Source: Clostridia bacterium
Lineage (GTDB): Bacteria; Bacillota; Clostridia; Christensenellales; UBA1242
DNA: 64,000 nucleotides
NCBI GenBank assembly: GCA_017468205.1
Contig: JAFUJK010000013.1
Location: forward strand, 2,020-66,019
Reading direction: 5' to 3'
Shown: piece after piece, positions 1,439 to 31,245 of the stretch
Layout of the letters: the number at the start of each line of letters is the position of its first letter
Position numbering within the stretch: position 1 is the stretch's first letter
Translations under genes and position numbers: made by a program
Notes under the pieces: model-generated
The model's input: only the letters and a program-made list of their open reading frames with translations
Told to the model about the DNA's origin: nothing
The model's database searches: none

Positions 1439-1526
1439 AATTTGACTTCTTTGTTGTTGCCTTTGGAATATGCCCGAACTTTTTACATTTACTTGTAGAT
1501 AAATTATGAACGGGGGAGTTATCCTT

Positions 1527-4500
1527 ATGTCAAATTCAGTAAAAATTACAATAGCGATTGTTGTGGCAGTACTTGTGATAGCGAGTATTGTAGGTTTAAT
1601 ATTTGTTCTAACACCCGCATCAAAGCCGAACAACTCGCTTACTCAAAGGTTAGCAACCCCAGAAAACGTGAGGATTAATGAAGAAAACTGGGTGTTGAGT
1701 TTTGATAGCGTGGAAAATGCGCAAGGCTATCGCATTTATATCAATGACGCGGACACCTTTGTCTCGACCTCAACTAGCGTATCAGTTCAAAGTTATATTA
1801 CAAGATACGCAAAATATTCGTTTGAAGTTAGTGCTATTCACTCAACTCCTGACTATAACTCGGCTCGTAGTGCTCCTGTTTATGGATACAATACGACCAC
1901 ACTTTCGACACCTCTAAACCTTACGTGGGAAGGCGAGGAATTGTCGTGGCTTGCAGTTGAAAATGCATCAAGTTATTCTGTTATGCTTACTTATAAGCCA
2001 GATGGCTCTAATAATGAAATGACTACAAACATTTTAACCCACGGCAACACTTTTGACTTTGGTGCATTGCTTACACAAGCGCCATATTCGCAAATAAACT
2101 TCTTTGAACTCGCTGTAAAGGCAAGTTCAACTGATGCCTATGGCAACGAAAATGACTATATTTATGATAGCGCTTACAGCGACCCTGCGATTTATTTTAG
2201 AACTACATCAATTGATGCACCAACGATTAGAATAAGTCCAGACGTGAGAGGGCAAACTAGCCAGCAAGGCACAGAAAGAGTGCTTTCTTGGGACGTTGAT
2301 TTTGCAGTTGATAAATATCTAGTTTACGTAAATGGACAACTTCGCAAAACTGTTGCTAATGACGAACTTGAAGGCTTGTCATCATATAGTTTGAACCTTA
2401 ACGAAATTATGGTTGATGGTGTTTGCATTACGGATACTTTGGGCGCAAAAACAATCTTTGTAACCGCAGTTCCCAAAACTAACGACTATTATCATATTGA
2501 AAATCGTTCGAGCGACTTAATTGAATATACTGTGGTTCACACTCTTTCTGCTCCTGATGCTCAATCAATTAAAATGAGTAAGGAAGGGGAAAACCTTGTT
2601 ATTACTTGGGATACAGTTGAAGATACATATGGCGTGAATACTCGTTATACTCCAACTTCGTATAACCTCGTGTTGCTTGCAAATAGTGATATAGAAAATC
2701 CAACCTTTGTAGCGCGCGCCCCTGTAACCGAATTGCTTTTGCCTTATTACAGTATTCCACTGTCCGAACTCAGTGCCTTGGGTGTTTCATTTAAAGCAAT
2801 GATTTCTGCTGTTGAAAGTAAATCGGAATATATTTTGGATAGTGCGTATAGTGAAGAATCCGAGGCTTATGAGGCAATAACCCAACTTGAAACTCCTGAC
2901 GGCTTTGCACTTAACGAAAGCAACGGTGTTGATACATTGTCGTGGCGTGCTGTTGACAATGCAGGAAGTTATACCGTTATGGTTTATATGGGTACAATAG
3001 ATGCCGAAACTAATAACATTAATGCGATTGGTTCTGCCTTGGTAACTCAGGTTGTAACCGAAACAAAAATAACAATTTCAAATTATATGAAAGCGCACTT
3101 GCCAAACCCTCTTGGTCCAGGACTATATGCAATTCGCGTGATTGCAAATGGTGCGTCAAAATTCTACACATCATCAAATGCTAGTGAACCAGTAAAATAT
3201 GATTATAAGGTTCGTTTGACCGCTCCTGTAATTCATTCTGTGTCAAAGGTTGCTCAACTTGACAATAAGGGCGAAATTACATTCGTTTTTGATTATGTCG
3301 AGGGCGCAGAAAGATACCACATCAATGTTAACGGAATTTTGGCATTCTTGATTGACCAGCCAGCACTAGATAGTGAAATGATTTCTAGTGTTGAAGTTAA
3401 TGGCACTACATCTTATAGAATAGTTGATAAAACGCGCTTAACTGATTTTATAAATAATAACTATTCTTCACCAAAAGTGCATTCAATCACGGTTCAAGCG
3501 ATTATTCTTGACACTGAAAATGCAAATGGTTATATCAGCAGTCTTTTGTCAACAGAATATAAGTTTAGTGATTATTATACGCATCAAAAGCCAACAAATC
3601 TTGTTGCTTCTCAACAAGCAGGGCAGAATGGTGTAGTTCTAACTTGGGATAGCGTGCCAACTGTTGTTGCTGCTAACGGAACTTACGAAATCTTTGTAAT
3701 TGACGAAAACAACGGGCGCGTTGCTGTAAACACTAACGCTATCACAGGAAGCCGTGTAGCAGATTTGAGTCCTTACTTGCAACTTGGTATGAACACGATT
3801 GAAATGCGTTCTGCTCGTTCTGGTTTGTATCTTGCTAGTGATTACGTAACAACTACAATAAATTATGTTTATAACTTATCGGGAACTCTCAACACTACAA
3901 TCACTCCAATAAGTGGCTCCAAGAATAATAGACTTTTTATTGAGGCATCTAAAAATGTAGATTTCCGCTATATAACTGATTATTATGTAGAGTTTATCAA
4001 CAGCGCAGGAACTGTATTTAACAGCCTAAATATTCATACTGATGTTGCTGGTAGTGATATTGACGAAGTTATAACTGACGAATACTTACCTCTATACAAG
4101 ACGACGACAGTAAAAATTTACGCAGGTAAGACTAAATCTGGTGATAACATAATTAGTCAGAGCGTACATCTTAATTCTGATGGCTGTGAGTGGAGTTTGG
4201 ACTATGAAAGCAGTTCGTTTATGGACAGCCCTACAATCTCGCATAGCGAAACAGTAGTTGATTCTAAACCAAAGGTTTACGCAACGATTAATGTTTCAAA
4301 GGATTCACTTCCTTTTACAAAGAGCATTGAATGGACATTTGAAGGTACAACTGGTATAACTTATACAAGTTACATTGATATTACTGACACCACAACAAAT
4401 AGTTTTACAATTGATTTGACAGCATTGCAACTTGTAAATGATGATGAAAATGCCCTTTTAGGTGGTGGATACAATATCACTGCAACCGCTATTTCAAACA

Positions 4501-7500
4501 AATCTAGCGAATTGCGTTCAAGTCCAGCACAATATGCATTTGATATTATCATCGACCTTCAAGCACCTGCGGGCTTTGTTATGGCTGACGACCATTCATA
4601 TTTGCAATGGAATTATATTGCTTTTGTTGACCACTATGAGATAACGATGAACGGCGCAACAAAGTCTACAACTGTTAGTGAGTATACTGATTATGTTGAT
4701 GGCAAATATGTGCGTGTAATGCGTGCAAATACTACTGGCTGGTTCAGTGGGCTAAGCAAAGGCGCAAGTGTGGTATTTGGTGTTAAAGCGGTTGCACAAG
4801 CCAATGGATACTATCGTGATAGTAGTGCAGTTTACACTTGGGAATTTAACAATAGAATTTCCGCGCCACTTGTAGAAGTTGTTACTAAAAACAATCAACT
4901 CCACCTCCAAATTCTTTACAGCAAATTAGTTTCTAATTATTCAATTAGTTGTGAAGAATCAAGCGCAGGAGTTAGTGTAAATGCGACCGCTAATATTGTT
5001 GAAAACGGTTACGTTTACTTCAACCTTGAAAATGTGCTTGCGGATAAAGTGGCAGGTGAATATGGATTTAGTGTTGTTGCTAATCCACTTGATGCTTCAA
5101 CTTATAACACAAGCGACCCAACAGTTGTTAATGTTGAATGGCAAAAGCGTTTTGCTCAACCAAACATTACCGTAGCGCAGAATTTTGATAACAACACACT
5201 TTCATTTACTTGGAGTGATGTTAGTGTAGATGTGCTTGCAAATGGACAATTGACAAGAGTTGCGCCAAGTGGCTATCTTGTTACAATTACACAAGCATCA
5301 AGAACGGATAGTGTATATTCTCAAACATTGACAACAAATACACTTACATTAACCTCAACAGAACTTGCTTCTATGACAAGTGGTTACTACTTCGTAAGTG
5401 TTACAGCACTTGAAAATGCTCCGATGTTAGAAAGTTATGAAAGTGCATATCGCTTTGCTTATCAACAACAACTTCAAACTCCAATCATAGCCTTTGTTGC
5501 AGGTGATAGCCTAGCAAACGAGAATACTCTTGACGTACAGCAAACAAGCACACCTGATGCAAATGCTCCAAAATTTGACCTTAAAGTTATCAATTCAGCA
5601 AATGAAGAGAAGATTTTTGAGGGGATTGCTTGGAGTGGAAACGTAGCAACACTTCAAGGTGGTACGCACTTTGCCGAGCGCGGTTCTTATACCATTGCTA
5701 TTCGCAATGCACAGAACGGAAGTTTGGCTGCGAGTGCGTGGAGTAATTCTCTTGTAATTCGTTACGGCACTTCGTTTGATGTGGCTGAAAACATTACAAT
5801 GACTTATGACGACCCAACAACAACATATACTGTGAACTTTGACAAATTAGAATTGCCAAGTGAATTGACGGGTGAGGTAACATATACTGCAAGCGTAACT
5901 TACAACAATATTAAGCAAGCCATCACAAGCGACCAAATTACACTTGTTGCGGATAGTACATATTCATTTAGTTTCCAAAACGCGCAATGGGGTGATGCGT
6001 GGGCGGAAGGTTCGAGATTTACAATTGTGATTACAGCAAACACTACAGACGAACTTTACACTACGAGTAGCACAACCTATGTATTTGCTATCGGTGATAT
6101 GGTTGCACCATACGACATTGTGTTTACTGCTGATGGTGCAGATGCAACAATTACTTGGAAAGGTGATACACAATATGTCGGTGTTGTATATACCTATTCA
6201 ATCTATGTTGTTGACGCAAACGGCTCAAATTTATATCTTGCAAACGATGGTTCTTGGACAGCAGATAATGCTAATCAAGCAACATTGACAACGACAACAA
6301 CCGAAATTGCCTTTACTCTGCCAAGCGCACAAGTTTATGCAATTTACTTTACAATAATAGCAAGTGTTACAAACGGAGTTGACTCTGTTGCAAGTGCACC
6401 TCATACACACATCTTTATGAACACGCAAACACTTGCTGGGGTAAATGACTTTGCAGTTAATTATGATAAGACAACACAAACTTACACTGCAATTTGGACA
6501 AATAATCTTCAAAATTCAACCGCTTTCAATGGTGGCGCTTACACTCTTAAAATAAATGGAACTACTGTTCTCAATTCAAGTGTGGAAAGTGGCTCAATAG
6601 TTAGTGTTGACATTACGTCATTTGTTCCAACATTCCTTGCAAGCGGACGAATTGCATACTGGGAGATTACTGCAAGTGATGTTGTTTATACTGTTGGTGA
6701 ATCAAACTACATTGCTTATAAGGGTGGTGTATATGCTAACAGCCTTGAACTCCCAATCGTTATTAGCGATGCCCCAAACACTTTAGTTCTTGACGGGACT
6801 GTTGCAAAATGGAGTTATGTGGTGAATGCTACAAAATATAAACTCTACATCGCAGACAGCACAGGCATGCCACTCAACTTTGAGAACGGCTCTGCTCGCG
6901 AGATTGTAACAAATCAAAACACCTATGACTTCTCTGGACTTCTTGCTGGTTTGGAAGCAGGGGACTATCTCGTGGTTGTTCAAGTTGAGGAGGACGAGGC
7001 AAACGGCGTTTATGTAAGCGAAGATTTGGAAAAAACAACAGCAACATATCTACAAACTGCTCCATTAAACGCAATTACTGATTTGACATTTGAACAAAAT
7101 TACGTTGGTGGACAGGTTAGAACATATGCTAGATGGAATTACAACACAAACGGCGACTTTACGATTGAAAATATGAAGTTTAGCATTACAATTACCGATA
7201 AAAATGGTAAATCAGTTGCATACGACAATCTCAACCCAGCATTAAGTGGTACAAAGTTTACTTATTCTAACAGCGCAGGCGACACAACAAAAGGCTCATT
7301 CGTGTTTAGTTATATTGACCGCTCTGCTGACGATTTGACTGTTGACCTTGCAGGTGGCGAATGTGTGTTCACGGTCGTTGTAAGCGGTGTTGACGGAAGT
7401 GCATATTTCACTGCTTCAAACGGTGTGAGTGGCAACTTCAACAATATTTTTGGACTACAAGCAATCACTAACGACAACCTCTTTGCTGTTGCACCTGAAT

Positions 7501-10500
7501 GTTTCATTAAGGGTGTTGCGTACAACGAAATTGCAGGCTATGAGGAAGGTTTGAGAGATGACTTCGAAGAGTATGAAAGTACAATCGGCTTCAACGAAAA
7601 ATATCTCATAATAACAGATGACACGCTTTCATTTGCTCAATACTTCAAAGTGTATATCTCAACAACAACCGATGGTAACGGCGCAAATATTTACGAATAT
7701 GTCGGCGATATTAAGAATGAAGCAACAGAAATTAGTTTTGATGCAATTTCTAACACAACCGCAAAATTGCGCCTTCCAACAGCAATCGCTGGAATTAATA
7801 AGATTAAACTTATTCCATATGGCGAAGAAGAATACTACAAATATATTGATGGAGGCACTGTTTATGACTTGTCTTCTGATGTGGCTATCGAGAAAATTTC
7901 AAGCGAGTTCGATGTTGAGTTGTTTATGAGAAATGAGGCTCCAAACCTCAATATTCACTCTATAAAATTGGGCTATTCTGACAGCCAAGACAAGAAGAAT
8001 ATTAATTCTGTAAATCTTACATTTAGCAACCTTAAAATAGGCGGAATTTATCGAGTTACACCATACTACTATGACTATTACAACAATGGCGCGCTTGTTG
8101 AATGCGAGCCAACGGACATTGGACCTCTAACCGCAGACGACTTTAACGGAAGTGTCCCAAAAGGTCTTGACATCTACGACTTGATTAGTTTCTACGGTCC
8201 TCATCAATTCTACTTTACTGTGCAGTCTATCGTGCCACAAGGCGAGGGCTCAAACTACTGGCTCAACAGCCACATTTCAACAACTCCTAATAGTTTTGAA
8301 TTTGTTACAAAATTGATGGAATTTGCGCCAATACTTGATGGTGATAGTTCAGTCAACAGCCTTGTAAACCCAATTACAGTTAAAAATGCAGGTGGCACGC
8401 TTGAAAATGGCGACTTGTATTGGACTTTGCCAACACACCCATATAGTGTTCGTATAATCTACACTGTTACTTTGTGTGATGAAAACCAAACTTTGGGTAG
8501 CATTATGCAGTTTGGCGAGAAACATATCATTAAATATAGCGTAGTGCTTGATGTGATTGTTACAAAGGACAGCATTACATATCAAATTGGTGAGCAAAGT
8601 ATGCTCAAACAAAATGTAACGTCAACAATAACCGACGGATTTGTGCTTGACACGGATAATGGTATTTTAGTATTTGATATGACAAAATATTTTGAGGATA
8701 GCACTCGTGTTGCCGACAATCAAAATGGTGCTTGGTACTTGGCGGGAAGTTATACTTATATGATTACTGCTGATGTGTTTGCTATAAGTGAGCCATATAA
8801 TTGCACTAGGATTTCTAGTCCAGCATCATTTGGAACAGAAAGCGCAATGAATAAGTACAATTATACAAACATTCCATTCCCATATCAGCCTACAAACGTT
8901 CGCCTGAGCGAGAACGGCGACTTAACTTGGGACTATGCGGACAAAATCTACGACTCTGCATATCTTGATACTGCAATATTTGAAATTTGGGTGTATAACT
9001 GGGACGATGCTCACGAGAACTATACTATATCAAAACTCGATGACTATGTCTACGGTACAGTTGTAACTAACATTAGCCACTTGTTGACCGCTGGTGGTGC
9101 AAAGAGAAATGAGGTTGTTATCCGTACAGTTAGCCCTGATATTAACATCTATGAGCCTAGTGAATGGGTGAGTGTAAACGCAGGTGCATTACCTACAACA
9201 ACTGCCCTTCCAAACATTAGTGTAGTTTGGGGTAATGACGAAACACTCAAAAATAACGACCACCGCGTAGTTGCAATTACTCTTGACAATTACGTAAGTA
9301 ACGCAATTCTTGCAGACGTTGAAGCAAACAATTTTGATGTGCATATTAACGTTCACTTGCTCAAAGTTATTGATTGGGCACAGGGTAGCCCAGAACCAAC
9401 TTATGCTAACTATGATGAGGCAAGAGAAAGTGGCGACTATCCAACAATCAGTTGGAACCAGCCACTCACCGAACAATATTATAATTATATTACCTATAAG
9501 AACCACGAAGGTCTTGACTACAAATTTAATTTTGTAAACGCTATCAATGCACTTGTTAGTGCTGGATTAGAAAGCGAAACTTTGTGGCTTATTGGTGGCG
9601 ACTCTCTCGCTGGTGGGTACTACTATCTTAAAGTAGAACTCACAACAGGTCTTACTTGCTACTCTCCAAGCGTGGTTTATCAGTCAAAACTTGTTCGCGA
9701 AGTTTGGCGCAGTAGTCAAGAACAGGCAACTATAACTGGTCAACACCTTACTACAAAAACATTAGGTGTTGCAGCCGAGCCTGTGAACGGAAATGATAGA
9801 GAATGGGGAGCCGATGCTCACAAAGAAGCATTGCTTACAATCCCAGTTGACACGATTGACTACCGCATCGACGAGAATACGATTGCACCAAAACTTCCTT
9901 CTGAAATTACCGTTTACGCACGACTCTACACAGGAGTTGGCTATGATGCAGACCACAGTTATTCAATCACTTACTCAATACCTGATGTAAGTTTGATTAC
10001 TGGCGGAAAATATCAAAATGGCGACATAACTTTGTCAATGATTACTGATAATGATTATAGCCGTATTAATGTTACAATCGATATTCACGCTTTATTTGAT
10101 AAGAATATTTACGCGGGAGTATATGACATCTTCTGGGTGCTTAACGGCGACCAAGTCGGCGACAGCAGTCCAGTAGAAGCGCCATATCAGTTGCGTGAAG
10201 AAATTTGCCACTATGTAGTTTTCCCAACACCAATACTTGACTATCGTTTGGGCTACACTGGCACAAATAGCGACCAGTACGTAATTAACTGGGTTCTTAC
10301 TCCAAATAAATATACTCACGAAGTTAACGACACAATTGATTATAACATCAATTTGTATGCGTTCGTTGCTGATGAAAATGGTAACTTTGCAACTGATGAC
10401 GCGGAGGCAAATGACCCTAACTTCTTGAAAGCATCAAGTCAAGAAAAATATTTTGTTGGGAATGCAAATGCAAGCGGAACAACTTTAGAAAATTACAGCA

Positions 10501-13500
10501 ATATTCAAGTGCTTAATGGCAGAGATTGTTATATTCAACAAAATACAATCGCAGGATTTAGTTTGACACCAAACAAGACTTACAAAGTTTATATGTATCT
10601 TTCAACCTCTCGTTGGGGTGAAACTGATGATATGAATGCGTTCTATTACTTGAATAGTGATACTTCTGTTGGTGTTGAATACGTGTACAAGAAGATTTCA
10701 GGTCAGCACGTTGCTGATGATGTAGAGTCTCCAACAGCGGATTATCCATTAGAAAGATTTACCGCCAGTGATAGAGAAGTTGTTGAAAATGGTGCTTATT
10801 ACACATTTACATCAACTCAACCAGATTACAACAACAATGCACTTGAATTATTCGTGTACAACACGCAAGACCCTCGTGCTGGGTACGATGAACATTGGAC
10901 TGATGCACAAGAGAATGACGGCACATATCTTGCTCACTTCATTATCGGTACAAAGGATAATGCAAGTGCAAAGAACGGAAGACAAGACTTGTATATCTTG
11001 TATGACTACGAGGATAAAGTTGTCAACTCTGGAACTTGGGACTATTCGCGCTCGGTTGGATTTATGTCGGGCAAAAATATCACAATCAACAAACTCACTA
11101 TTAGCGAATTGCTTTATAATAAGGTAACCCAAGTTGCTGGACTCGACCTCAATAAAATGTGGACACCAATCACATATTATTGCAAAATCCAATCTTGGAT
11201 AAACAATAACGAAGTAAACAAGAATATGCCAACATATCTTGGTACGGACAACGTTGTAAGATACAAGGATAAGGATACAGTATTTGGCAGAGAATGGATT
11301 AAGAAACACATAGATTTCGTTCGCAATGAGGACGGAAGCATCAATTCAGAAGCGGTAGAGAAGTTGTATAACGATTTGCTTGAAGACAACAAGGTGTTCG
11401 ATGTTCCATACTTGAATGCAAACGCGTTAAATCTTGAATACTATTTCACATTCCAGCACACAATCCAATATGCAATGCCATATTTGTCTAGTGAAAATGG
11501 AATTGAAATTGTAAACAAGGACGGCACAAGTGATTATGTTGATTACTCAACAATCGACCTTGGCAATGGCGTGTTGCAATATAAGACTGATGGATATGTT
11601 AAGGCTACTTCAAACTTTAACTATTACTATCGCATTTGGCTTAACGACTTATATACAACTGACCCACTCATTAGAAGTGATAAGGAAATTAATGTAACCG
11701 TAAGTGCTACATTCTATGACGATACTACGGGTGGCTCGGGTAACTATGGCGACTATAACAATAGCCAATGGGGAACTTTTGATTCTGTAAACTTGTTTAT
11801 TCATTATGTTGATGAAGACAATGAGGATTTGAGCGCTGAATTTATCGCCGCGCACAAAGGACAAGCTTACATTGAATTAAAGTTTGATAGCCCAGAAAGT
11901 GGGGCGAGCGCGTTATATACCGCTATGGACCAATGGCTTCCTAACATCTTTACGTTTGAGTTTAGAGCGGTAACTAGTGGCAGTCCTGTGATTAACACGG
12001 GTGAAACAAATACTACAAATGCGTTTGTAACTTACAATAATGTAACTGGTGAAGTTAATTCTACAAAGAACGTGATTTCACGTATATATGCAGAGTCTAA
12101 CTCATCAGAACACCCAAATTATTTGACCGTTCGCAAGCAATACACCGCTCCAACAGTTGATTTAAGATTTGACTCAATGCAGACATCGCTTTCTGAATTT
12201 GGTGAAATGCAATCAATAAAGTTAGGTGAAACTTATTACACGACAAACCTTGTTGAAGAACTTACAAATTCAGACTATGTAGGACTTGCAAGTAACCCTT
12301 ATCTATTCTCAACAGCGGAGGCTTTGGATAGAACGGGCGGTCAAGCCTTTGAGTATGGTATGCTGAAAACTGATAAGCGTACACATTATGAAATCAAGTT
12401 GTACTACAAGGATGATAACGGAAATATTCTGAATACTTCAAATGTGATTAGTTTGCTTACAAATGACGTAAACAACACGCTCACACGCTTTACACAAGCC
12501 GTAAAAGGGCTTGATGTGGATTCAGCACGTTTTGACTATTCAAAATATAAAGATATCTATCCATACGAAGAAACTTGCTTGTACGAAGCAATGTATAGCC
12601 TTATCAATGGCGACCTCAAAACTGGCGCATATAAGGGCGGAAGAATTGATATTGACATTCGCGTTGTAACACCAAGCGAGGATAGAACGGACAAAAACAA
12701 TCAAAATTGGGTTACAAGTGCGTGGGCAAGTGCTGAACGAGCAGAATTATATACGTTCTATTTCCACCCTCGACTTGAAACCGTTGTAACTTCATTCAAT
12801 CAAAATGAATGTAACTTTACAACAGATTATGAGGGCGGTACATCTTCGTTCTATGTGCAAGACGGAAAGTATTATTACCACCAATCTTACGTTCCTTTGC
12901 ACTACACATCAATTAGTCGTACTGCACAATACTATGTATATCTGTCTCGTACACAGGGCGGAAGTGGTTATATTAATATGCCTTATAACATAAATAACTC
13001 TGTTGTAAGAGATTATTGTACACTTTCACCTCGTAACACTGATACAAAGAATACAAAGAACCTCGTTGATATCCTAAAACACGACCTAGTAGATGCTAAA
13101 ACTTATGATTCAAGTTCTTCTTCTGCCCACGCTAACCAATGGAGATTGCCAGAAAACGTAAATGATACGTGGCTTATCAACATTGTTGCAGCAGTTGGCG
13201 ATGATATGACTTATGTTGGTCGCGGATTTAATAGTAAAGACCAAAACTATACTGTTAAACTCAAAATCAAGATGGACATTCAATCACTTTCAATTGATAT
13301 GGAACCACTTGTAAACAAGTCAACAAATGTGCTTAATGAAAATTCATTCACTGCAACAACATTGAAAAATGGCTATGCAGGTAGTGCTTTGTGGAAAAAT
13401 TACAGCACTTCACAAGATTTAACTGGACAGGCTTTCAACAGGGCGGCTAACAAGGCGGTATTTAAATACTACTATCCTTATGGCAACACTATGAAAGCAA

Positions 13501-15233
13501 CAGGTACTTATACAATCGGCGATACTGACAATAGATACTACAAACTCTTCTATGACTTTATCAAAGGTTCACTTATGAGCGACCTCAACATTCGTGCTTC
13601 TGACGGATTTAGGGTTAACGTAATGTTCAAGTTTAATGATGGCACTTATGCAAGCGAGAATGTTGTCGATAGTGCATACTCCGTTGACTTGTATCTAAAT
13701 TACTATCGTAACTTGCCGTTTGATACAAGTAAAATTGTGTTCACACAAGATAGTAGCGGAATTAAAATGAACGCAAACTATTCAGTACACAACCAGTTTG
13801 CTGCATTGAATGTAACTATTGACCAATATGACTATTCAAATGGAAATAATTATACTTCAACCGCTATATACACTTCTAATAGTACAAGCGGAAGTACCAA
13901 GAACTATGTGGCTAAGGCAAGTTTTGATTACGATTATGCTGATTGTTTCAGTACAAAATCAATCCCAGCCGATGTTATTAGAAAAATGATAAATAACGGA
14001 TACACGCAGTACACGGGTTATGCACAAGGTGGTATGAACTACTTTACAATTACCCCTGTTCATGACGGATATGCAAAAGACCACAATTTGCTTGCGTATG
14101 GAACAAAGTATAATGACGATGTCGACTATACTGTTCGCATTAACCCAACTGTTTCAATATCTTACGACGAGGGTATGCATAATGACGAAAACACTGTAAT
14201 TTCTGACTCGTGGATTTGGGACCACTCATCAACAACTAATTCATATATTGAAAAAGAGTTGATTATGGATGAGTATTGGGGATATATTGAAAATATTACT
14301 GCTGATTATAGTTATATGAATGGCGCAACGGTAGAAGTTTATTATGCTTATGGCTTAACTATTGAAAATCCTGCTCACGTTGTTGATATCGTATCGGGTA
14401 CATCAACAAAAGCAATGACTTCATTTGGCTCGGGACAATATAATGATGTTGAAATTGAAATTCGAGTTTATTGTAAAGAAGGATTTGAAAGTGTGTTCGC
14501 GCGTTCAAGTGACAGCGATAGCATAGATATAAAACCGGGTAGCGATGTGCAAGAATATGTTCCTGTAAGAAAAGATTACTCTGAAAAGACAAATATATTA
14601 AGTTATGTTGAGCTTGAAGTTACTGACGGCTGGATGGGTGGCGGTAGTGTCGCTGATTATGTTGGAAGTATATTTAAAGGTGGTAATCGTGATGCTAGAT
14701 GTACTGTTTCATACGATACTAGTGAGTTACCAAGTGGATTTAGTTTCAATATTGATGTAAGCGCTAGATATAGAGTATCTTATTCTGAAAATGTAGCAGA
14801 AGAGGGAGAAGAAGAAAATATTAAAACTATTTATAGAACTGGTAATTTGAGCGGTAATACTACAATTTCAACAGGCGGTTCTGGTTCATTTAGACTTACA
14901 GGTCATTATTGGGAAACGGATGCTTACAAATGTCTTGCTTCGTTTAGCGATTTTGAAGGTGGAAGTGCCTCTATGAGTAATAGCACTTTTGAACGTGGTG
15001 CAGGTGCAACCGCAGGTGCAACAACTCCTTGTGTAACTTGTGGTGGTGACGGAAAAGTGGAAAGTGCTCACAAAGGTTCAAAAGTAATAACCATAACAGA
15101 TACCTATTACAAATGTTCTTGTGGTGAAACTATTGATGGTACTATTTGGGACGGCGATACAAAAACATGGGGTACTGGTTGTCCAAAACATTTGGCAGAT
15201 TGCTCTTCTTGTAATGGAACGGGATATATATAA
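1527..15233 (+). CDS. Giant (~4,570 aa) N-terminally membrane-anchored protein with FN3-like repeats and a C-terminal Cys-rich zinc-finger-like tail
   Basis: Single uninterrupted ORF 1506..15233. The ATG at 1527 is preferred because GGGGGAG lies 8 nt upstream. There is a hydrophobic anchor, ITIAIVVAVLVIASIVGLIFVL. Many ~90-100 aa modules have the pattern [LI]xxP...W...Y.[VI], e.g. LSTPLNLTWEGEELSWLAVENASSYSVMLTY. The last ~70 aa hold 7 Cys, including two CxxCxGxG motifs. Confidence 0.85.
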   Translation: MSNSVKITIAIVVAVLVIASIVGLIFVLTPASKPNNSLTQRLATPENVRINEENWVLSFDSVENAQGYRIYINDADTFVSTSTSVSVQSYITRYAKYSFEVSAIHSTPDYNSARSAPVYGYNTTTLSTPLNLTWEGEELSWLAVENASSYSVMLTYKPDGSNNEMTTNILTHGNTFDFGALLTQAPYSQINFFELAVKASSTDAYGNENDYIYDSAYSDPAIYFRTTSIDAPTIRISPDVRGQTSQQGTERVLSWDVDFAVDKYLVYVNGQLRKTVANDELEGLSSYSLNLNEIMVDGVCITDTLGAKTIFVTAVPKTNDYYHIENRSSDLIEYTVVHTLSAPDAQSIKMSKEGENLVITWDTVEDTYGVNTRYTPTSYNLVLLANSDIENPTFVARAPVTELLLPYYSIPLSELSALGVSFKAMISAVESKSEYILDSAYSEESEAYEAITQLETPDGFALNESNGVDTLSWRAVDNAGSYTVMVYMGTIDAETNNINAIGSALVTQVVTETKITISNYMKAHLPNPLGPGLYAIRVIANGASKFYTSSNASEPVKYDYKVRLTAPVIHSVSKVAQLDNKGEITFVFDYVEGAERYHINVNGILAFLIDQPALDSEMISSVEVNGTTSYRIVDKTRLTDFINNNYSSPKVHSITVQAIILDTENANGYISSLLSTEYKFSDYYTHQKPTNLVASQQAGQNGVVLTWDSVPTVVAANGTYEIFVIDENNGRVAVNTNAITGSRVADLSPYLQLGMNTIEMRSARSGLYLASDYVTTTINYVYNLSGTLNTTITPISGSKNNRLFIEASKNVDFRYITDYYVEFINSAGTVFNSLNIHTDVAGSDIDEVITDEYLPLYKTTTVKIYAGKTKSGDNIISQSVHLNSDGCEWSLDYESSSFMDSPTISHSETVVDSKPKVYATINVSKDSLPFTKSIEWTFEGTTGITYTSYIDITDTTTNSFTIDLTALQLVNDDENALLGGGYNITATAISNKSSELRSSPAQYAFDIIIDLQAPAGFVMADDHSYLQWNYIAFVDHYEITMNGATKSTTVSEYTDYVDGKYVRVMRANTTGWFSGLSKGASVVFGVKAVAQANGYYRDSSAVYTWEFNNRISAPLVEVVTKNNQLHLQILYSKLVSNYSISCEESSAGVSVNATANIVENGYVYFNLENVLADKVAGEYGFSVVANPLDASTYNTSDPTVVNVEWQKRFAQPNITVAQNFDNNTLSFTWSDVSVDVLANGQLTRVAPSGYLVTITQASRTDSVYSQTLTTNTLTLTSTELASMTSGYYFVSVTALENAPMLESYESAYRFAYQQQLQTPIIAFVAGDSLANENTLDVQQTSTPDANAPKFDLKVINSANEEKIFEGIAWSGNVATLQGGTHFAERGSYTIAIRNAQNGSLAASAWSNSLVIRYGTSFDVAENITMTYDDPTTTYTVNFDKLELPSELTGEVTYTASVTYNNIKQAITSDQITLVADSTYSFSFQNAQWGDAWAEGSRFTIVITANTTDELYTTSSTTYVFAIGDMVAPYDIVFTADGADATITWKGDTQYVGVVYTYSIYVVDANGSNLYLANDGSWTADNANQATLTTTTTEIAFTLPSAQVYAIYFTIIASVTNGVDSVASAPHTHIFMNTQTLAGVNDFAVNYDKTTQTYTAIWTNNLQNSTAFNGGAYTLKINGTTVLNSSVESGSIVSVDITSFVPTFLASGRIAYWEITASDVVYTVGESNYIAYKGGVYANSLELPIVISDAPNTLVLDGTVAKWSYVVNATKYKLYIADSTGMPLNFENGSAREIVTNQNTYDFSGLLAGLEAGDYLVVVQVEEDEANGVYVSEDLEKTTATYLQTAPLNAITDLTFEQNYVGGQVRTYARWNYNTNGDFTIENMKFSITITDKNGKSVAYDNLNPALSGTKFTYSNSAGDTTKGSFVFSYIDRSADDLTVDLAGGECVFTVVVSGVDGSAYFTASNGVSGNFNNIFGLQAITNDNLFAVAPECFIKGVAYNEIAGYEEGLRDDFEEYESTIGFNEKYLIITDDTLSFAQYFKVYISTTTDGNGANIYEYVGDIKNEATEISFDAISNTTAKLRLPTAIAGINKIKLIPYGEEEYYKYIDGGTVYDLSSDVAIEKISSEFDVELFMRNEAPNLNIHSIKLGYSDSQDKKNINSVNLTFSNLKIGGIYRVTPYYYDYYNNGALVECEPTDIGPLTADDFNGSVPKGLDIYDLISFYGPHQFYFTVQSIVPQGEGSNYWLNSHISTTPNSFEFVTKLMEFAPILDGDSSVNSLVNPITVKNAGGTLENGDLYWTLPTHPYSVRIIYTVTLCDENQTLGSIMQFGEKHIIKYSVVLDVIVTKDSITYQIGEQSMLKQNVTSTITDGFVLDTDNGILVFDMTKYFEDSTRVADNQNGAWYLAGSYTYMITADVFAISEPYNCTRISSPASFGTESAMNKYNYTNIPFPYQPTNVRLSENGDLTWDYADKIYDSAYLDTAIFEIWVYNWDDAHENYTISKLDDYVYGTVVTNISHLLTAGGAKRNEVVIRTVSPDINIYEPSEWVSVNAGALPTTTALPNISVVWGNDETLKNNDHRVVAITLDNYVSNAILADVEANNFDVHINVHLLKVIDWAQGSPEPTYANYDEARESGDYPTISWNQPLTEQYYNYITYKNHEGLDYKFNFVNAINALVSAGLESETLWLIGGDSLAGGYYYLKVELTTGLTCYSPSVVYQSKLVREVWRSSQEQATITGQHLTTKTLGVAAEPVNGNDREWGADAHKEALLTIPVDTIDYRIDENTIAPKLPSEITVYARLYTGVGYDADHSYSITYSIPDVSLITGGKYQNGDITLSMITDNDYSRINVTIDIHALFDKNIYAGVYDIFWVLNGDQVGDSSPVEAPYQLREEICHYVVFPTPILDYRLGYTGTNSDQYVINWVLTPNKYTHEVNDTIDYNINLYAFVADENGNFATDDAEANDPNFLKASSQEKYFVGNANASGTTLENYSNIQVLNGRDCYIQQNTIAGFSLTPNKTYKVYMYLSTSRWGETDDMNAFYYLNSDTSVGVEYVYKKISGQHVADDVESPTADYPLERFTASDREVVENGAYYTFTSTQPDYNNNALELFVYNTQDPRAGYDEHWTDAQENDGTYLAHFIIGTKDNASAKNGRQDLYILYDYEDKVVNSGTWDYSRSVGFMSGKNITINKLTISELLYNKVTQVAGLDLNKMWTPITYYCKIQSWINNNEVNKNMPTYLGTDNVVRYKDKDTVFGREWIKKHIDFVRNEDGSINSEAVEKLYNDLLEDNKVFDVPYLNANALNLEYYFTFQHTIQYAMPYLSSENGIEIVNKDGTSDYVDYSTIDLGNGVLQYKTDGYVKATSNFNYYYRIWLNDLYTTDPLIRSDKEINVTVSATFYDDTTGGSGNYGDYNNSQWGTFDSVNLFIHYVDEDNEDLSAEFIAAHKGQAYIELKFDSPESGASALYTAMDQWLPNIFTFEFRAVTSGSPVINTGETNTTNAFVTYNNVTGEVNSTKNVISRIYAESNSSEHPNYLTVRKQYTAPTVDLRFDSMQTSLSEFGEMQSIKLGETYYTTNLVEELTNSDYVGLASNPYLFSTAEALDRTGGQAFEYGMLKTDKRTHYEIKLYYKDDNGNILNTSNVISLLTNDVNNTLTRFTQAVKGLDVDSARFDYSKYKDIYPYEETCLYEAMYSLINGDLKTGAYKGGRIDIDIRVVTPSEDRTDKNNQNWVTSAWASAERAELYTFYFHPRLETVVTSFNQNECNFTTDYEGGTSSFYVQDGKYYYHQSYVPLHYTSISRTAQYYVYLSRTQGGSGYINMPYNINNSVVRDYCTLSPRNTDTKNTKNLVDILKHDLVDAKTYDSSSSSAHANQWRLPENVNDTWLINIVAAVGDDMTYVGRGFNSKDQNYTVKLKIKMDIQSLSIDMEPLVNKSTNVLNENSFTATTLKNGYAGSALWKNYSTSQDLTGQAFNRAANKAVFKYYYPYGNTMKATGTYTIGDTDNRYYKLFYDFIKGSLMSDLNIRASDGFRVNVMFKFNDGTYASENVVDSAYSVDLYLNYYRNLPFDTSKIVFTQDSSGIKMNANYSVHNQFAALNVTIDQYDYSNGNNYTSTAIYTSNSTSGSTKNYVAKASFDYDYADCFSTKSIPADVIRKMINNGYTQYTGYAQGGMNYFTITPVHDGYAKDHNLLAYGTKYNDDVDYTVRINPTVSISYDEGMHNDENTVISDSWIWDHSSTTNSYIEKELIMDEYWGYIENITADYSYMNGATVEVYYAYGLTIENPAHVVDIVSGTSTKAMTSFGSGQYNDVEIEIRVYCKEGFESVFARSSDSDSIDIKPGSDVQEYVPVRKDYSEKTNILSYVELEVTDGWMGGGSVADYVGSIFKGGNRDARCTVSYDTSELPSGFSFNIDVSARYRVSYSENVAEEGEEENIKTIYRTGNLSGNTTISTGGSGSFRLTGHYWETDAYKCLASFSDFEGGSASMSNSTFERGAGATAGATTPCVTCGGDGKVESAHKGSKVITITDTYYKCSCGETIDGTIWDGDTKTWGTGCPKHLADCSSCNGTGYI

Positions 15234-15435: not shown

Positions 15436-15604
15436 GTCATTGCGAGGTACCCGTGAGGGCAACGTGGCAATCTCGGCAATTTTATTGCCGTCACGAAGAA
15501 TGTTCTTTTTCAAAAGGCGAGATTGCCACGTCAACACTTTGTGTTTCCTCGCAATGACAAGTAATTTAATTGTTAAGTCGCTTCGCTCATTGTGGCAATC
15601 TCGC
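15436..15604. repeat. Cluster of three copies (forward, inverted, partial) of a dispersed intergenic repeat GTCATTGCGAGG-N(15-20)-CGTGGCAATCTCGCC
   Basis: Unit A is 15436..15476, forward. Unit B is 15516..15558 and is its reverse complement (ggcgagattgccacg...cctcgcaatgac). The 3' half-unit gtggcaatctcgc is at 15592..15604. Further copies are at 24695..24763 and 29344..29386. Confidence 0.8.
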
Positions 15605-23214: not shown

Positions 23215-23339
23215 ATATTTTTGTAAAAGTGAATCTGTAAAAAATAAAATTTATCCTATTTTTGTTAGTAAATTTAATTAATTTGTGTTATAATATTGTT
23301 ATAAAAAATGAAAAAAGTGGAGGAAGTTTATGCAAAATA

Positions 23340-24602
23340 ATGAAAATTCCACCCCAAAAATCCCGCAGGGGGGGGGGGGCGCTAAATAGCGAAAAAATTG
23401 TTGAAAAACGCGTTAAAATCGCGGTTTTTAGCGTTTTTTTAACCCTAGTAATTGCCTCAATTGTAATGATTATATGGTTCTTTTTCCCAAGTGTGAAAGG
23501 TGCGCCTGAACAGATAGCGGGTGTAACTTTGGGAGTGGAACCTGCGGAAGGAGGATACATTATAGTTGAAGGGGTTATTATGGAAGCTGGATATTATAGT
23601 ACTTCCACATTTAGATTTGGATTCGATATAATAAGTGCTATGCCTAATGATGGTTATGCTTTTGTGAAATGGATTTATACTGTAAGTGGACCAGCTGAAT
23701 ATGAATCAACATCTCAATCTATGACGATGGATGAATATACGTTTGAATATATTGCTTACTTTGAGCAAATAAGTTTTAATGTAGGGGTTGCTACGAGTGA
23801 TACTTCCATGGGGGCTGTATCTGGTGGTGGTGTATATTCCTATGACGCAACGGAAAGCGCGACAATTACAGCGACACCAAGCGCAGGCTATGCCTTTTCG
23901 CATTGGTTGAATAGCGCGGGGGATATTGTTTCTACAAGCGCAATTTATACATTCACTGTTACAGCAACTGATACATATACAGCAGTATTTAGAGAGTACG
24001 CGCTATCAATTACAACAAATAATAGTGGTAGTGAAATTTCAAGCCAAAAGATTGATGAATTAAACACAATGACTACATATGCTCTTACTTTTACTACTGG
24101 TAAATACTTGTCTCAAATTCAGTTTAATAATGGTTCATTGCGCGATATAAAATATAATAGTGGAACATTTGGTGATGTTGAAGGCTGTACGGCTGTAACA
24201 TATTACGCAAATTCAAGTGGCTCGGAGTTGATTTTAAATGTGTACAATTACAATGGTGCACTAGATTTAGAAATTAAATTGTATTTTGTTAATACTGCAC
24301 AATCTTTGAAACAACCTAGCGGAAGCATTGAAACTACGGCTGTAAATGCTACTAATGGCGGGGAAGTCCGTTTGACTGGCTCGGATTTAATTGGTGAAAG
24401 CGATACGGTTGTATGTATTGCGGTACCTTATGCTGGCTATGTGTTTGACGGCTGGACAGACAGCGATGGAAACAATCTTGGCACTGATTTAAGTTTGCGT
24501 TTGACGAAGGAGCAAGTTCAAGGAAAAATTATAACAGCAAACTTTTCATTAAGCGGTACTAACGTAAATACTAATGTTAGTGATTTTGATAGTTTATCAT
24601 AA
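23340..24602 (+). CDS. Surface protein paralog 1: signal-anchor plus divergent InlB B-repeat-like domains, with a G12 tract in the 5' coding region
   Basis: Coordinates give the uninterrupted frame as sequenced. The SD-proximal ATG is at 23330 and is out of frame at G12. The TM anchor is IAVFSVFLTLVIASIVMIIWFFF. Repeated G.VSGGG.Y....A.ITA.P..GY.F..W modules match the divergent InlB B-repeat as I recall it. Confidence 0.7.
   Translation: MKIPPQKSRRGGGALNSEKIVEKRVKIAVFSVFLTLVIASIVMIIWFFFPSVKGAPEQIAGVTLGVEPAEGGYIIVEGVIMEAGYYSTSTFRFGFDIISAMPNDGYAFVKWIYTVSGPAEYESTSQSMTMDEYTFEYIAYFEQISFNVGVATSDTSMGAVSGGGVYSYDATESATITATPSAGYAFSHWLNSAGDIVSTSAIYTFTVTATDTYTAVFREYALSITTNNSGSEISSQKIDELNTMTTYALTFTTGKYLSQIQFNNGSLRDIKYNSGTFGDVEGCTAVTYYANSSGSELILNVYNYNGALDLEIKLYFVNTAQSLKQPSGSIETTAVNATNGGEVRLTGSDLIGESDTVVCIAVPYAGYVFDGWTDSDGNNLGTDLSLRLTKEQVQGKIITANFSLSGTNVNTNVSDFDSLS
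23368..23379 (+). repeat. G12 homopolymer (candidate slipped-strand phase-variation tract)
   Basis: 12 consecutive G counted directly, inside the first 20 codons of the gene. Confidence 0.95.
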
Positions 24603-27879: not shown

Positions 27880-29214
27880 ATGGGAAAATTGTTCGGCACG
27901 GACGGAATAAGAGGAATTGCAAATGAGAAAATGACGGCTGAATTGTCGTTTAATTTAGGGAAATCATTTGCAATTTTTCTTTTAAATTCAGCAAAACATA
28001 AGAAAATATTGCTAGGACAAGACACGCGAGTTTCGGGGCAAATGTTGAGTTTTGCGTTCGTTGCTGGGCTTAATTCGATGGGATTTTCGGTGATTATGGC
28101 GGGAATTATGCCTACACCAGCATTGAGTTTTTTGGTTAATTCACTTGATGTAGATGGGGGCGTAATGATAACTGCAAGCCATAATCCTGCTGAATTTAAT
28201 GGGCTAAAATTATATGATGCCAATGGTCTAAAATTGACAGAGAGTGCGCAAGCGGAAATTGAAAAAATTTATTGTGAAATTGATAGTTATCGAGGCTGTC
28301 CTCCTATGGAAGTTGGGCATTGCGAACAGCACGATTTGCTAAAAAAATGGGTTGACCATATTGCCATATCTCTTGGTAATCCAAAACTTGATGGGCTAAA
28401 AATTGCTCTTGATACTGCCAACGGCGCAAGTAGTTTAGTTGCTCCTTATGTGTTCAAAATGCTAGGCGCGATAACTACGACTTATCATAATTCTACCGAT
28501 GGAAAATTCATTAATAAAGATTGCGGAAGTACTTATATAGAGAATTTTGTCGATATTTGCATAAAAAATAAGTTTGATTATGGAATTAGTTTTGACGGTG
28601 ATGCGGACAGAGTTGCGGTAGTATGTGGGGACGGAAAAATTTTGGACGGCGCGGATTTGTTGTGGATTTTTGCCAATTATATGCACCAAAAAGGTGAACT
28701 TGCTGGTGATTGTGTTGTTTCAACTGTTATAACTAATTGTGGACTTGAAGAAAGCCTAAAAAAACGCGGAATAAGTATGATTCGTACCCCTGTTGGCGGT
28801 TTGTTTGTTCAACAAGAAATGATAAAGCAAAATTGCGTTTTGGGTGTCGAGGAAAGCGGGCATATAATGTTGAGAAAAGTGAATTTTGAGGCTTGTGGCA
28901 TTACTTCTGCTGTGTTTTTGCTTAAAATTTTGCTAGAAACAGGAAAAAGTGTCAACGAATTGTTAGAGGGCTTTGAAAGAACGGCGGTTGTTAAAGCTGA
29001 TGTTGATGTGAGTGAACGACAAAAACGAATAGTAGAGGAGGGCGTGCTTGAAGATTTGTGTGCGGAACTTGAAAATGAATTAAATAGTTTTGGGCGGATT
29101 GTTTTGCGTACAAGTGGTACGGAAAGTGTCGCGCGCGTTCTAGTCGAAGGAAAAGACAAGGAAATCTTGCAAAAAATTTGCAATCAAATCGTTTCTTCTA
29201 TTAAGAGTTTATAA
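27880..29214 (+). CDS. glmM: Phosphoglucosamine mutase (alpha-D-phosphohexomutase family)
   Basis: MGKLFGTDGIRG N-terminus, active-site TASHNPAEFNGLK, metal site FDGDADR, and a length of 444 aa typical of GlmM. Confidence 0.8.
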   Translation: MGKLFGTDGIRGIANEKMTAELSFNLGKSFAIFLLNSAKHKKILLGQDTRVSGQMLSFAFVAGLNSMGFSVIMAGIMPTPALSFLVNSLDVDGGVMITASHNPAEFNGLKLYDANGLKLTESAQAEIEKIYCEIDSYRGCPPMEVGHCEQHDLLKKWVDHIAISLGNPKLDGLKIALDTANGASSLVAPYVFKMLGAITTTYHNSTDGKFINKDCGSTYIENFVDICIKNKFDYGISFDGDADRVAVVCGDGKILDGADLLWIFANYMHQKGELAGDCVVSTVITNCGLEESLKKRGISMIRTPVGGLFVQQEMIKQNCVLGVEESGHIMLRKVNFEACGITSAVFLLKILLETGKSVNELLEGFERTAVVKADVDVSERQKRIVEEGVLEDLCAELENELNSFGRIVLRTSGTESVARVLVEGKDKEILQKICNQIVSSIKSL

Positions 29215-29343
29215 TCGTGAAATTTCACGATTTTTTTGCTATAATCGAAAAAAGATTGTATACTAAAAATATTTCAAAAATAAGTGAAAATTGTTAGTAA
29301 TTTGTCGCAAAATATGGTATAATAAGAGTAAATAAAATAGCTT

Positions 29344-29386
29344 GTCATTGCGAGGAGCGAGTTGCTTGCTCCGTGGCAATCTCGCC
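29344..29386 (+). repeat. Complete copy of the GTCATTGCGAGG...CGTGGCAATCTCGCC repeat in the 5' UTR of surface paralog 2
   Basis: gtcattgcgaggagcgagttgcttgctccgtggcaatctcgcc lies between the TGgTATAAT promoter element and the GGAGG SD. Confidence 0.85.
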
Positions 29387-29416
29387 TTTTAAATAATAAA
29401 AATCGGAGGAAAAACA

Positions 29417-31190
29417 ATGAAAAAAGACCATTTATCCACCCCTAAAAATCCGCAGGGGGGGGGGGGCGCTAAATAGCCAAAAAATTGTTGAAAATGGCTT
29501 AAATAAAGGCTTTTCGGACAATTTCAAAAATGAAAAAAGTTATAAAAAAGATAGTGAAATAAAACTATTTTCAATTATATTTACAAGTATTTTTTTATGC
29601 GCTTGTGTAGTAAGTGTAAGTGTATTTTTTGCTCTGTATTCAAAGGCTTTGTATGACTACAATAATACAGATTATTATATTGGCGATATGCTTAACAATA
29701 ACTCTGTGAATATTGATACATATAATACGCTGATTTCAAAAATTTCGGGTGATACGGGTGGACGTGCTTCAATTAATGGGGGAACACCGATATCATTTAA
29801 AATGGGGGACTACTATTGGCAGGTAGTGTATGTGGACCCATATAATACAGATATAGTTTCTGTTTGGATGACGGACGTTACGGAGTATAAGTCGATTTGG
29901 TATGAATCATCAGCAATAAAGGAATATTCTGAATCTGTATTATATAGCACGGTAAATACAATTTACGCTGCACAAAAAAATGCATATCCAGTTTTGGATA
30001 ATATAACAGTTTCGCAAACAAATATGAGCAGTGATTATAAGGCGAAACAAGATAGTTTGGCTGTTACTAACATAGGTTTTGATGTAGTTACCAAATCTGG
30101 GACATTATCCACTTTGACTGATAAATTTTGGGCTCCCAGCACTCACGAACTTATCACATATTGGGAAATTGATGCATCAGATATGTATGCCTCAGATACT
30201 AGTTGGTTGCGTAATTGTTTGTTTTATGGACCAGATGGTGGTGTTTATATGGCTGGCTGGGTTAGTGGTGATGGAGATATGGGTAAAGCGACCCTTCCTA
30301 ATTCAATGTATGTGCGTCCAGCGTGTCATTTATCATTGGCACAGTTAAAAAGCAATGCTTGTTTTAATGTTATAGTAAATTCTGACAATACCTCTATGGG
30401 GACAGTTTCTGGTGGTGGTGAATATTCCAATGACGGAACGGAAAGCGCGACAATTACAGCGACCCCAAGCGCAGGCTATGCTTTTTCGCATTGGTTGAAT
30501 AGTGCGGGGGATATTGTTTCTACAAGCGCAACTTATACATTCACAGTTACCGCAACTGATACATATACGGCAGTATTTAGAGAGTACGCGCTATCAATTA
30601 CAACAGATAATGGTGGAAGCGAAATATCTACTCAAAAGTTTGACCAACTTAACACTATGACTACTTACGCGCTCACTTTCACATCAGGCAATTATATATC
30701 CCAAATACAATTTAATGGTGGTACTTTACGAGATATTAAATGTAACAGCGGAACTTTCAGTGATGTGGGAGGTTGTACGGCTGTAACATATTATGCAAAT
30801 ACAAATGGCTCCGAATTAGTGTTGAATTTATATAATTATAATGGTTTACAAGATTTGGTTATAAAATTATATTTCGTTAACACAGCACAAGCACTAAAAG
30901 CACCTAGTGGTGGTGTTGAAACAACAGCGGTTTATGCTACAAATGGTGGCGAAGTGCGCCTTACTGGCTCGGACTTGGCAGATGAAAGCGACACGGTTGT
31001 GTGTATGGCGGTGGCGTATGCAGGTTATCAATTTGACGGCTGGACTGATAGCGATGGCAACAATCTTGGCACTGCTTTAAGCATTCGCCTCACAAAAGAA
31101 CAAGTTGAAGGAAAAGTCATAACTGCGAATTTTTCGCAAATTAGTACAAATGTTAATACTGAAACAAACAATACGGAAAATTTAACATAA
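29417..31190 (+). CDS. Surface protein paralog 2: DUF6273-like N-terminal domain plus InlB B-repeat-like C-terminal module, frameshifted at the G12 tract (phase-OFF as sequenced)
   Basis: ATG 29417 has GGAGG 7 nt upstream. It reads MKKDHLSTPKNPQGGGGAK and then stops at G12. The main ORF frame is open from the tract through 31190 and encodes a TM anchor (LFSIIFTSIFLCACVVSVSVFFAL), but has no ATG before the TTG at 29649. FWAPSTHELITYWE...SWLRN...VRPACHLSL resembles DUF6273. Confidence 0.65.
29455..29466 (+). repeat. G12 homopolymer (candidate phase-variation tract)
   Basis: 12 consecutive G counted directly. The flanking sequence ccgcag-G12-cgctaaatagc is identical to the tract at 23368. Confidence 0.95.
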
Positions 31191-31219
31191 GGGTGCTTTA
31201 AAAGCCATTTTATAAAAAC

Positions 31220-31245
31220 AAAAAAGCGCAGTTGCGCTTTTTTTA
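31220..31245. terminator. Bidirectional terminator between convergent genes
   Basis: AAAAAAGCGCA-gt-TGCGCTTTTTTT. Confidence 0.7.

Follow-up and report, generated by a model that had tools for sequence, protein, structure and literature searches.

Paralog 2, the second of two related genes in the 64,000-nucleotide stretch of DNA analysed here (the window), is most probably a translational phase-variable contingency gene for a surface protein, in which slipped-strand mispairing at a homopolymeric G tract would leave the gene OFF at G12, the length present in the window, and ON at G11 or G14. The gene depends on a single start codon that lies upstream of the tract, the frame encoding its membrane anchor has no start of its own, and the tract differs by one G between otherwise almost identical assemblies.

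The window is chromosomal, with ~37 % GC, and the genes around both paralogs are housekeeping genes. Their order is aspS, ABC-F protein, SLOG protein, paralog 1, M23 peptidase, acpP, trxB, glmM (identified by Pfam), paralog 2, DEAD-box helicase, gyrB, and gyrA. Judging by the names of samples and scaffolds, the material comes from ruminant gut metagenomes. Elsewhere in the window, a giant ORF of 4575 amino acids (1506–15233, + strand) and the 474-amino acid ORF preceding it (14–1438, + strand) gave no Pfam match at E ≤ 0.001.

Reading Frames and G Tract of Paralog 2

The leader and body of paralog 2 comprise the following elements.

29405–29409, + strand: Shine-Dalgarno sequence GGAGG, read from the sequence
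29417–29476, + strand: OFF-state ORF at G12, 19 codons, reading MKKDHLSTPKNPQGGGGAK and ending at TAG 29474–29476
29455–29466, + strand: G12 homopolymer (the proposed switch), 38 nt past ATG 29417
29467–29477, + strand: conserved CGCTAAATAGC after the tract, with TAA 29470 and TAG 29474 in the two non-coding frames
29466–31190, + strand: body in the main frame, with cytoplasmic tail, transmembrane (TM) anchor, DUF6273-like region, InlB B-repeats, and stop 31188–31190
29565–29639, + strand: TM anchor, residues 50–74 of the ON protein
30378–30581, + strand: first InlB B-repeat

ATG 29417–29419 is separated from GGAGG by a 7-nt spacer and is the only start able to serve paralog 2. The main frame (coordinate mod 3 = 0) has no stop between TGA 29418, which overlaps this ATG, and 31188–31190, a frame of 590 codons, and its first ATG, GTG, or TTG is TTG 29649, downstream of the hydrophobic segment. 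Because the anchor frame lacks a start of its own, paralog 2 would be OFF at G12. In a series of tract lengths from G10 to G14 generated in silico, ATG 29417 opened an ORF of 590 or 591 amino acids at G11 and G14 only and was not joined to the main frame at G10, G12, or G13, so that within this series a change in tract length toggles the product between full-length and truncated forms.

The tract, a homopolymer of 12 compared with the ~7 or more expected of a contingency repeat, is situated inside the coding region of paralog 2 and near its 5′ end, and the motif with stops that follows it is kept in all cassettes described below. Runs of at least six G or C are limited in the 64-kb window to two G12 tracts, one in each paralog, and shuffles gave an expectation of 0.03 G runs of nine or more per window; the two G12 tracts are far beyond chance.

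A first-pass annotation of the same DNA had already placed the GGAGG, the 7-nt spacer, ATG 29417, the stop at 29474, and the G12 tract, and all of these readings were exact. It had also held that the anchor frame contains no start before TTG 29649, and a search of this interval for ATG, GTG, and TTG returned none. Its further claim, that translating the anchor requires the G run to change by −1 or +2, is supported by the ORF logic and confirmed by a natural G11 allele, and the reading it proposed across the tract, PQGGGALNSQKI, recurs as the ON reading in a third paralog, P0004, whose tract is G11.

Upstream Region and Predicted Product of Paralog 2

Three elements were located between glmM and the leader.

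29213–29232, + strand: intrinsic terminator of glmM, an 8-bp stem followed by a T run
29315–29323, + strand: putative extended −10 element TGGTATAAT, read from the sequence
29346–29383, + strand: REP-like hairpin (CATTGCGAGG-N-GTGGCAATCTC) of a dispersed family, located in the paralog 2 5′ UTR

The position of the glmM terminator indicates that paralog 2 is its own transcription unit with its own short upstream region. An analogue of the extended −10, TGTTATAAT, is found upstream of paralog 1 at 23288–23296. As a promoter scan returned no classical −35/−10 pair for paralog 2 and did not list the extended −10, the latter is proposed here as a candidate element. A promoter-spacer mechanism, with the tract lying between −35 and −10, was rejected since no start codon is present between the tract and the TM segment, and an internal promoter would therefore be unable to rescue the anchor. 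Phase variation by an invertible promoter or a recombinase was likewise rejected, on the basis that 28900–29900 contains no inverted repeats of at least 12 nt that could flank such an element.

The predicted fold of 29332–29480 is of ordinary stability (z = −0.08), and its centroid contains only the REP-like hairpin. No riboswitch or leader RNA was detected by Rfam at the gathering threshold in the window, L005, or L007, the window giving only a tRNA, and the best local matches in 29150–29700 under an E-value threshold had E > 1.

The hydrophobic stretch LFSIIFTSIFLCACVVSVSVFFALY has Kyte-Doolittle values above 2 over residues 47–76 and is K-rich on its N-terminal side. Both paralogs match Pfam PF18998 (Flg_new_2, a divergent InlB B-repeat), paralog 2 scoring 75.7 bits and paralog 1 scoring 96.3 bits where the gathering threshold is 23.6. 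From the TM segment, the K-rich N-terminal side, and the InlB B-repeat/DUF6273 domains, the product of paralog 2 is predicted to be a surface protein with an N-in, C-out orientation. An AF2 model of the ectodomain (pLDDT 70.5) produced no significant match to the PDB with Foldseek, where faint C-type-lectin-like rows appeared at E > 1. In the NCBI annotation (IJ301_ locus tags), paralog 2 is a 500-amino acid remnant that starts at M91, past the anchor.

Comparison with Paralog 1

23320–24602, + strand: paralog 1, with Shine-Dalgarno sequence 23320–23324, ATG1 23330, ATG2 23340, G12 tract 23368–23379, and stop 24600–24602

The first-pass annotation had reported an identical G12 in paralog 1; this was confirmed, and the flanks of the two tracts are near-identical. 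The leader core of ~60 nt is ~95 % identical between the two paralogs and the C-terminal 750 nt are 80 % identical; the anchors, TM regions, and N-terminal ectodomains cannot be aligned. At G11 and G14 the main frame is entered from ATG1; at G12 it is entered from ATG2, 15 nt from the Shine-Dalgarno sequence, with a product of 420 amino acids. Gene callers and NCBI (MBQ7977183.1, 420 amino acids) also start paralog 1 at ATG 23340. As the main frame is in frame with this start at G12, paralog 1 is probably not OFF in the window. Consequently, the proposal that the shifted reading is the native ON frame of both genes stands for paralog 2 and was too strong for paralog 1.

The paralog 1 tract was G12 in all three sequences that reach the locus (the window, L016, and L017). 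Two open ATG frames occurred in 4.7 % of composition-matched shuffles, and the second ATG of paralog 1 could be there by chance.

The Leader Cassette across the Gene Family

A homolog search identified the third paralog, P0004 (MBQ7977441.1), in the same metagenome-assembled genome (MAG) at another locus (proS ... ABC exporter). Its N terminus reads MKSKKLSTLKTPQGGGALNSQKIAENGLNNGF, its G11 tract is in frame, and the gene is ON with 641 amino acids. A profile of the leader peptides, searched against 5.8 billion proteins, returned two short matches only and identified a fourth leader in this MAG, IJ301_03010 (P0109), which reads MKNEKLSTAQTRGGGGALNSQKIAEK... and is a 49-amino acid call on a 3.7-kb contig outside the window. 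Scanning a single genome from each GTDB species for the cassette pattern gave six matches, all in the Hadza human-gut Clostridia MAG CAKVLR01, with three tracts of G10 and three of G11; a further Hadza contig from another assembly (L028) has G12. A scan of JGI metagenomes with the cassette pattern yielded one true match, the human-type contig L014 with G10, which is too few for a length distribution. The other candidate from that scan, L015, was a chance match on a high-GC contig and was discarded.

The cassettes share an invariant core, CCGCA-Gn-CGCT(T)AAATAGC and then a short run rich in A, and the remainder is divergent. All tract-bearing genes that can be read through encode a TM anchor together with DUF6273 and/or InlB B-repeats, a readout that covers the three full-length rumen-MAG genes and five of the six Hadza loci, with L008 running off the fetched stretch and P0109 comprising only its 49-amino acid leader. 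The distant homologs P0007 and P0029 (~33–36 % identity) have an ordinary Shine-Dalgarno sequence and ATG followed at once by the anchor, and carry no G tract; the leader is therefore an added module and does not belong to the ancestral protein.

The Hadza motif CGCTTAAATAGC has the same arrangement of stops as CGCTAAATAGC, with the frames permuted. The number of upstream ATGs varies, with one in paralog 2, P0004, and L009, two in paralog 1, and three in most Hadza cassettes. Hadza-type L007/L010, L011, L012, and L014 have open ATGs in all three frames, at −61, −54, and −29 from the tract, and two of the three have their own AAAGGAG. With starts in three frames, every tract length leaves an in-frame ATG, and the N-terminal peptide differs according to the start used (RRGGG, PAGGG, or PQGGG). 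Three open ATG frames arose in 0.1 % of composition-matched shuffles, which makes it unlikely that the triple start of the Hadza cassettes is due to chance. L013 has a TAA after its first ATG, which leaves this copy OFF at its G11.

REP-like Palindromes

The hairpin in the 5′ UTR of paralog 2 is one of several copies of a REP-like repeat (CATTGCGAGG-N18-20-GTGGCAATCTC) in the window and related loci.

15438–15473, + strand: REP-like repeat
15520–15556, − strand: REP-like repeat
~15594, + strand: REP-like repeat
~24698, − strand: REP-like repeat
29346–29383, + strand: REP-like repeat, the paralog 2 copy
L009 4690–4840, reverse complement: composite REP-like copy
L011 1700–1870, reverse complement: composite REP-like copy
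L014 800–900, reverse complement: composite REP-like copy

The copies in the window, where none would be expected, are intergenic or in the paralog 2 5′ UTR, and the repeat has no match to an Rfam family. The composite copies of L009, L011, and L014, ~110–190 nt long, separate the G tract from the TM segment, keep the reading frame without a stop codon, and read through as ...FLSLRGSVATAAIS...HCERSVAIS...; the paralogous loci L012 and L013 are without such inserts.

A different hairpin repeat (GTCATTCTGAGC...GACGAAGAATC) was observed at 810–870 and 1420–1470 of L020, in the long region upstream of the tract-less homolog P0029, and palindromic repeats of a related type seem to occur commonly upstream of genes of this family.

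A broader reading of the family is put forward only tentatively. The promoter, the Shine-Dalgarno sequence with one or more ATGs, the G tract, and the wrong-frame stops might form a portable, self-contained switch module that has spread over a surface-protein family in a small-genome lineage of gut and rumen Clostridia, in versions with one, two, or three starts. In that case the tract might switch paralog 2 ON and OFF, serve paralog 1 as a two-of-three switch, and be in the Hadza cassette a three-gear selector of start codon and N terminus that is never fully off, with in-frame REP-like palindromes remodelling the cytoplasmic tail.

Possible Recoding of the Tract

Tract length in the DNA would not be the regulator if G12 were decoded constitutively, either through RNA polymerase slipping during transcription or through a −1/+2 frameshift of the ribosome on the G run. 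A homopolymer of 12 nt allows realignment in principle, Gly codons should re-pair in any frame, and the shift required is the same for the two paralogs of the window. The wider family argues against this explanation, since in-frame alleles exist that need no shift (P0004 and, at the paralog 2 locus itself, L002, both G11), and the shift is not conserved, the Hadza cassettes being in frame at G10 or G11 by way of different ATGs. Obligatory recoding, which would be expected to leave a conserved out-of-frame arrangement, was rejected on the same in-frame loci (L002, P0004, and the Hadza loci). Moreover, well-documented transcriptional slippage in bacteria takes place on A/T runs, and no stimulatory structure stands out in the fold around the paralog 2 tract. 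Recoding as the normal mode of expression is therefore considered improbable, and the data are better accounted for by phase variation through tract length.

Tract Length and Gene Presence in Related Strains

The flanking proteins GlmM and the helicase were used as unbiased probes for the paralog 2 locus. The loci recovered (L001–L004 and L023) share at least 99.9 % identity with the window. In ERZ28654056 (L001) and in a Logan assembly (L004), the contig of which ends 7 nt beyond the tract, the run is G12. In ERZ28654190 (L002, P0105) it is G11, the locus is otherwise 99.95 % identical, and a 590-amino acid gene has been called from the predicted ATG. The assembly ERZ28653727 breaks inside the tract from both sides, with L003 ending in ...CAGGGGG and L023 starting with GGGGGGCGCT. 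The paralog 2 tract is polymorphic, G11 (L002) versus G12 (the window, L001, and L004), and has the ON length in one of the four resolved assemblies, these lengths being those of assembly consensus sequences and the variation being known from differences between assemblies and from contig breaks.

The first-pass annotation had asked whether the two tracts vary independently, and ERZ28654190 provides a case in which they do, with G12 in paralog 1 and G11 in paralog 2. That tracts with almost identical flanks differ within one assembly supports independent variation and speaks against a systematic miscall. The latter would hold that the tract is truly G11 everywhere, that the gene is ON, and that G12 is an artefact of Illumina sequencing or assembly. 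The difference is of one base only, errors are frequent in long runs of G, contigs are broken at this tract, and the G11/G12 difference between Illumina assemblies could in part be due to homopolymer miscalling. As a full explanation, a miscall is nevertheless very improbable. Three further records give G12, namely L001, L004, and the 500-amino acid call at NCBI, which fits that length; as the window may itself be one of those assemblies, the independent calls number two to four. The same pipeline and sample, moreover, resolve paralog 3 as G11 and paralogs 1 and 2 as G12. Even under this explanation, the locus would remain a gene with a hypermutable tract at its 5′ end.

The paralog 2 unit (29262–31241, + strand) is absent from two related strains, L024 and L027 (98.5–99.6 % identity), which have ~92 nt of unrelated filler between glmM and the DEAD-box helicase; the unit is a strain-variable segment. 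Its absence there, together with the OFF length of three of the four resolved alleles, would fit a decaying pseudogene that is being lost and in which the frameshift is a one-way inactivation, an explanation that is highly improbable given that the 590-codon frame is, tract aside, intact in every strain, that the sole lesion falls exactly in a tract conserved across paralogs and two species, and that an ON allele exists (L002).

Proposed Mechanism and Significance

In the preferred explanation, phase variation of paralog 2, slipped-strand mispairing during replication would change the length of the G tract. At G11 or G14, translation from ATG 29417 would cross the tract as ...NPQGGGALNSQK... 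and continue into the anchor and ectodomain, leaving the gene ON. At G10, G12 (the window), or G13, the stops of CGCTAAATAGC in both non-coding frames would terminate out-of-frame ribosomes at TAG or TAA 2–4 codons past the tract, and the gene would be OFF. The OFF state may not be absolute, as slippage of RNA polymerase or of the ribosome on G12 may allow leaky expression. With its own copy of the leader, each paralog would switch independently, giving a population with mixed combinations of surface proteins. The leader anatomy with its frames, the natural G11 and G12 alleles, and the conserved cassette are observed; replication slippage and the switching rate are inferred, as are the exposure of the protein at the surface and the agent of selection, be it phage, host immunity, or niche adhesion.

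If real, the system would represent a lineage "phasome" of at least four to six independently switching adhesin-like surface proteins, with a bearing on how commensal Firmicutes evade phage or host responses. It would also bear on annotation, paralog 2 being recorded at NCBI as an anchor-less protein, and on the handling of such loci in strain-resolved metagenomics, since contigs break at these tracts. A search of the literature found no homopolymer contingency loci reported for Clostridiales, for uncultured gut or rumen Clostridia, or for Firmicutes commensals. Phenomena of this kind are well known, but as far as the searchable literature shows, they have not been described in the host lineage of uncultured small-genome Clostridia from rumen and human gut, nor has the protein family or its duplicated leader cassette been described.

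Comparison with Known Systems

Homopolymer contingency loci are textbook features of Campylobacter, Neisseria, Haemophilus, and the mycoplasmas. The opa genes of Neisseria form a surface-protein multigene family in which CTCTT repeats in the region coding for the signal peptide switch the translation of each copy independently. The genes described here resemble them in that each copy has its own repeat in leader-coding sequence, with combinatorial expression as the expected outcome; they differ in that the opa repeat is a pentamer and the Opa proteins are outer-membrane β-barrels, and there is no sequence homology. The vlp genes of Mycoplasma hyorhinis, which has a small, low-GC, Firmicute-related genome, likewise combine a conserved 5′ cassette bearing a homopolymer with divergent surface-protein bodies, although the vlp poly-A tract is located in the promoter and acts on transcription, whereas the tract of the present genes is located in the coding leader and would act on translation.

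The palindromic elements of Rickettsia are short palindromic repeats inserted in frame, and without stops, inside ORFs (PMC10969869), and the REP-like hairpins read through in the L009, L011, and L014 leaders are similar in this respect. They belong to another element family and another host, and are inserted in the cytoplasmic tail adjoining the switch tract.

In licA of Haemophilus influenzae, which contains CAAT repeats, upstream ATGs in different frames allow more than one repeat class to be expressed (PMC2212159). Paralog 1, with ATG 23330 and ATG 23340, and the Hadza cassette follow a similar arrangement. The starts of licA occupy two of the three frames, whereas those of the Hadza cassette occupy all three and paralog 2 has one; the three-frame design, if real, would make an unusual variation on the principle known from licA.

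The polyG/C genes of Campylobacter jejuni include surface-protein genes with a G tract of 8–12 in the 5′ coding region, where changes of ±1 toggle translation, and several such loci are present per low-GC genome (PMC3401435, PMC4965091). In capA, G11 is ON and G10 and G12 are OFF, with switching at ~1.6 × 10^-3 per division (PMC3401435). Paralog 2 and its relatives share with capA the G tract in the 5′ coding region, the toggling by ±1, the presence of several loci, and the low GC content. Campylobacter jejuni is an Epsilonproteobacterium, and both the phylum and the proteins are unrelated to those described here, where, unlike in C. jejuni, the tracts are carried in a conserved, duplicated leader cassette.
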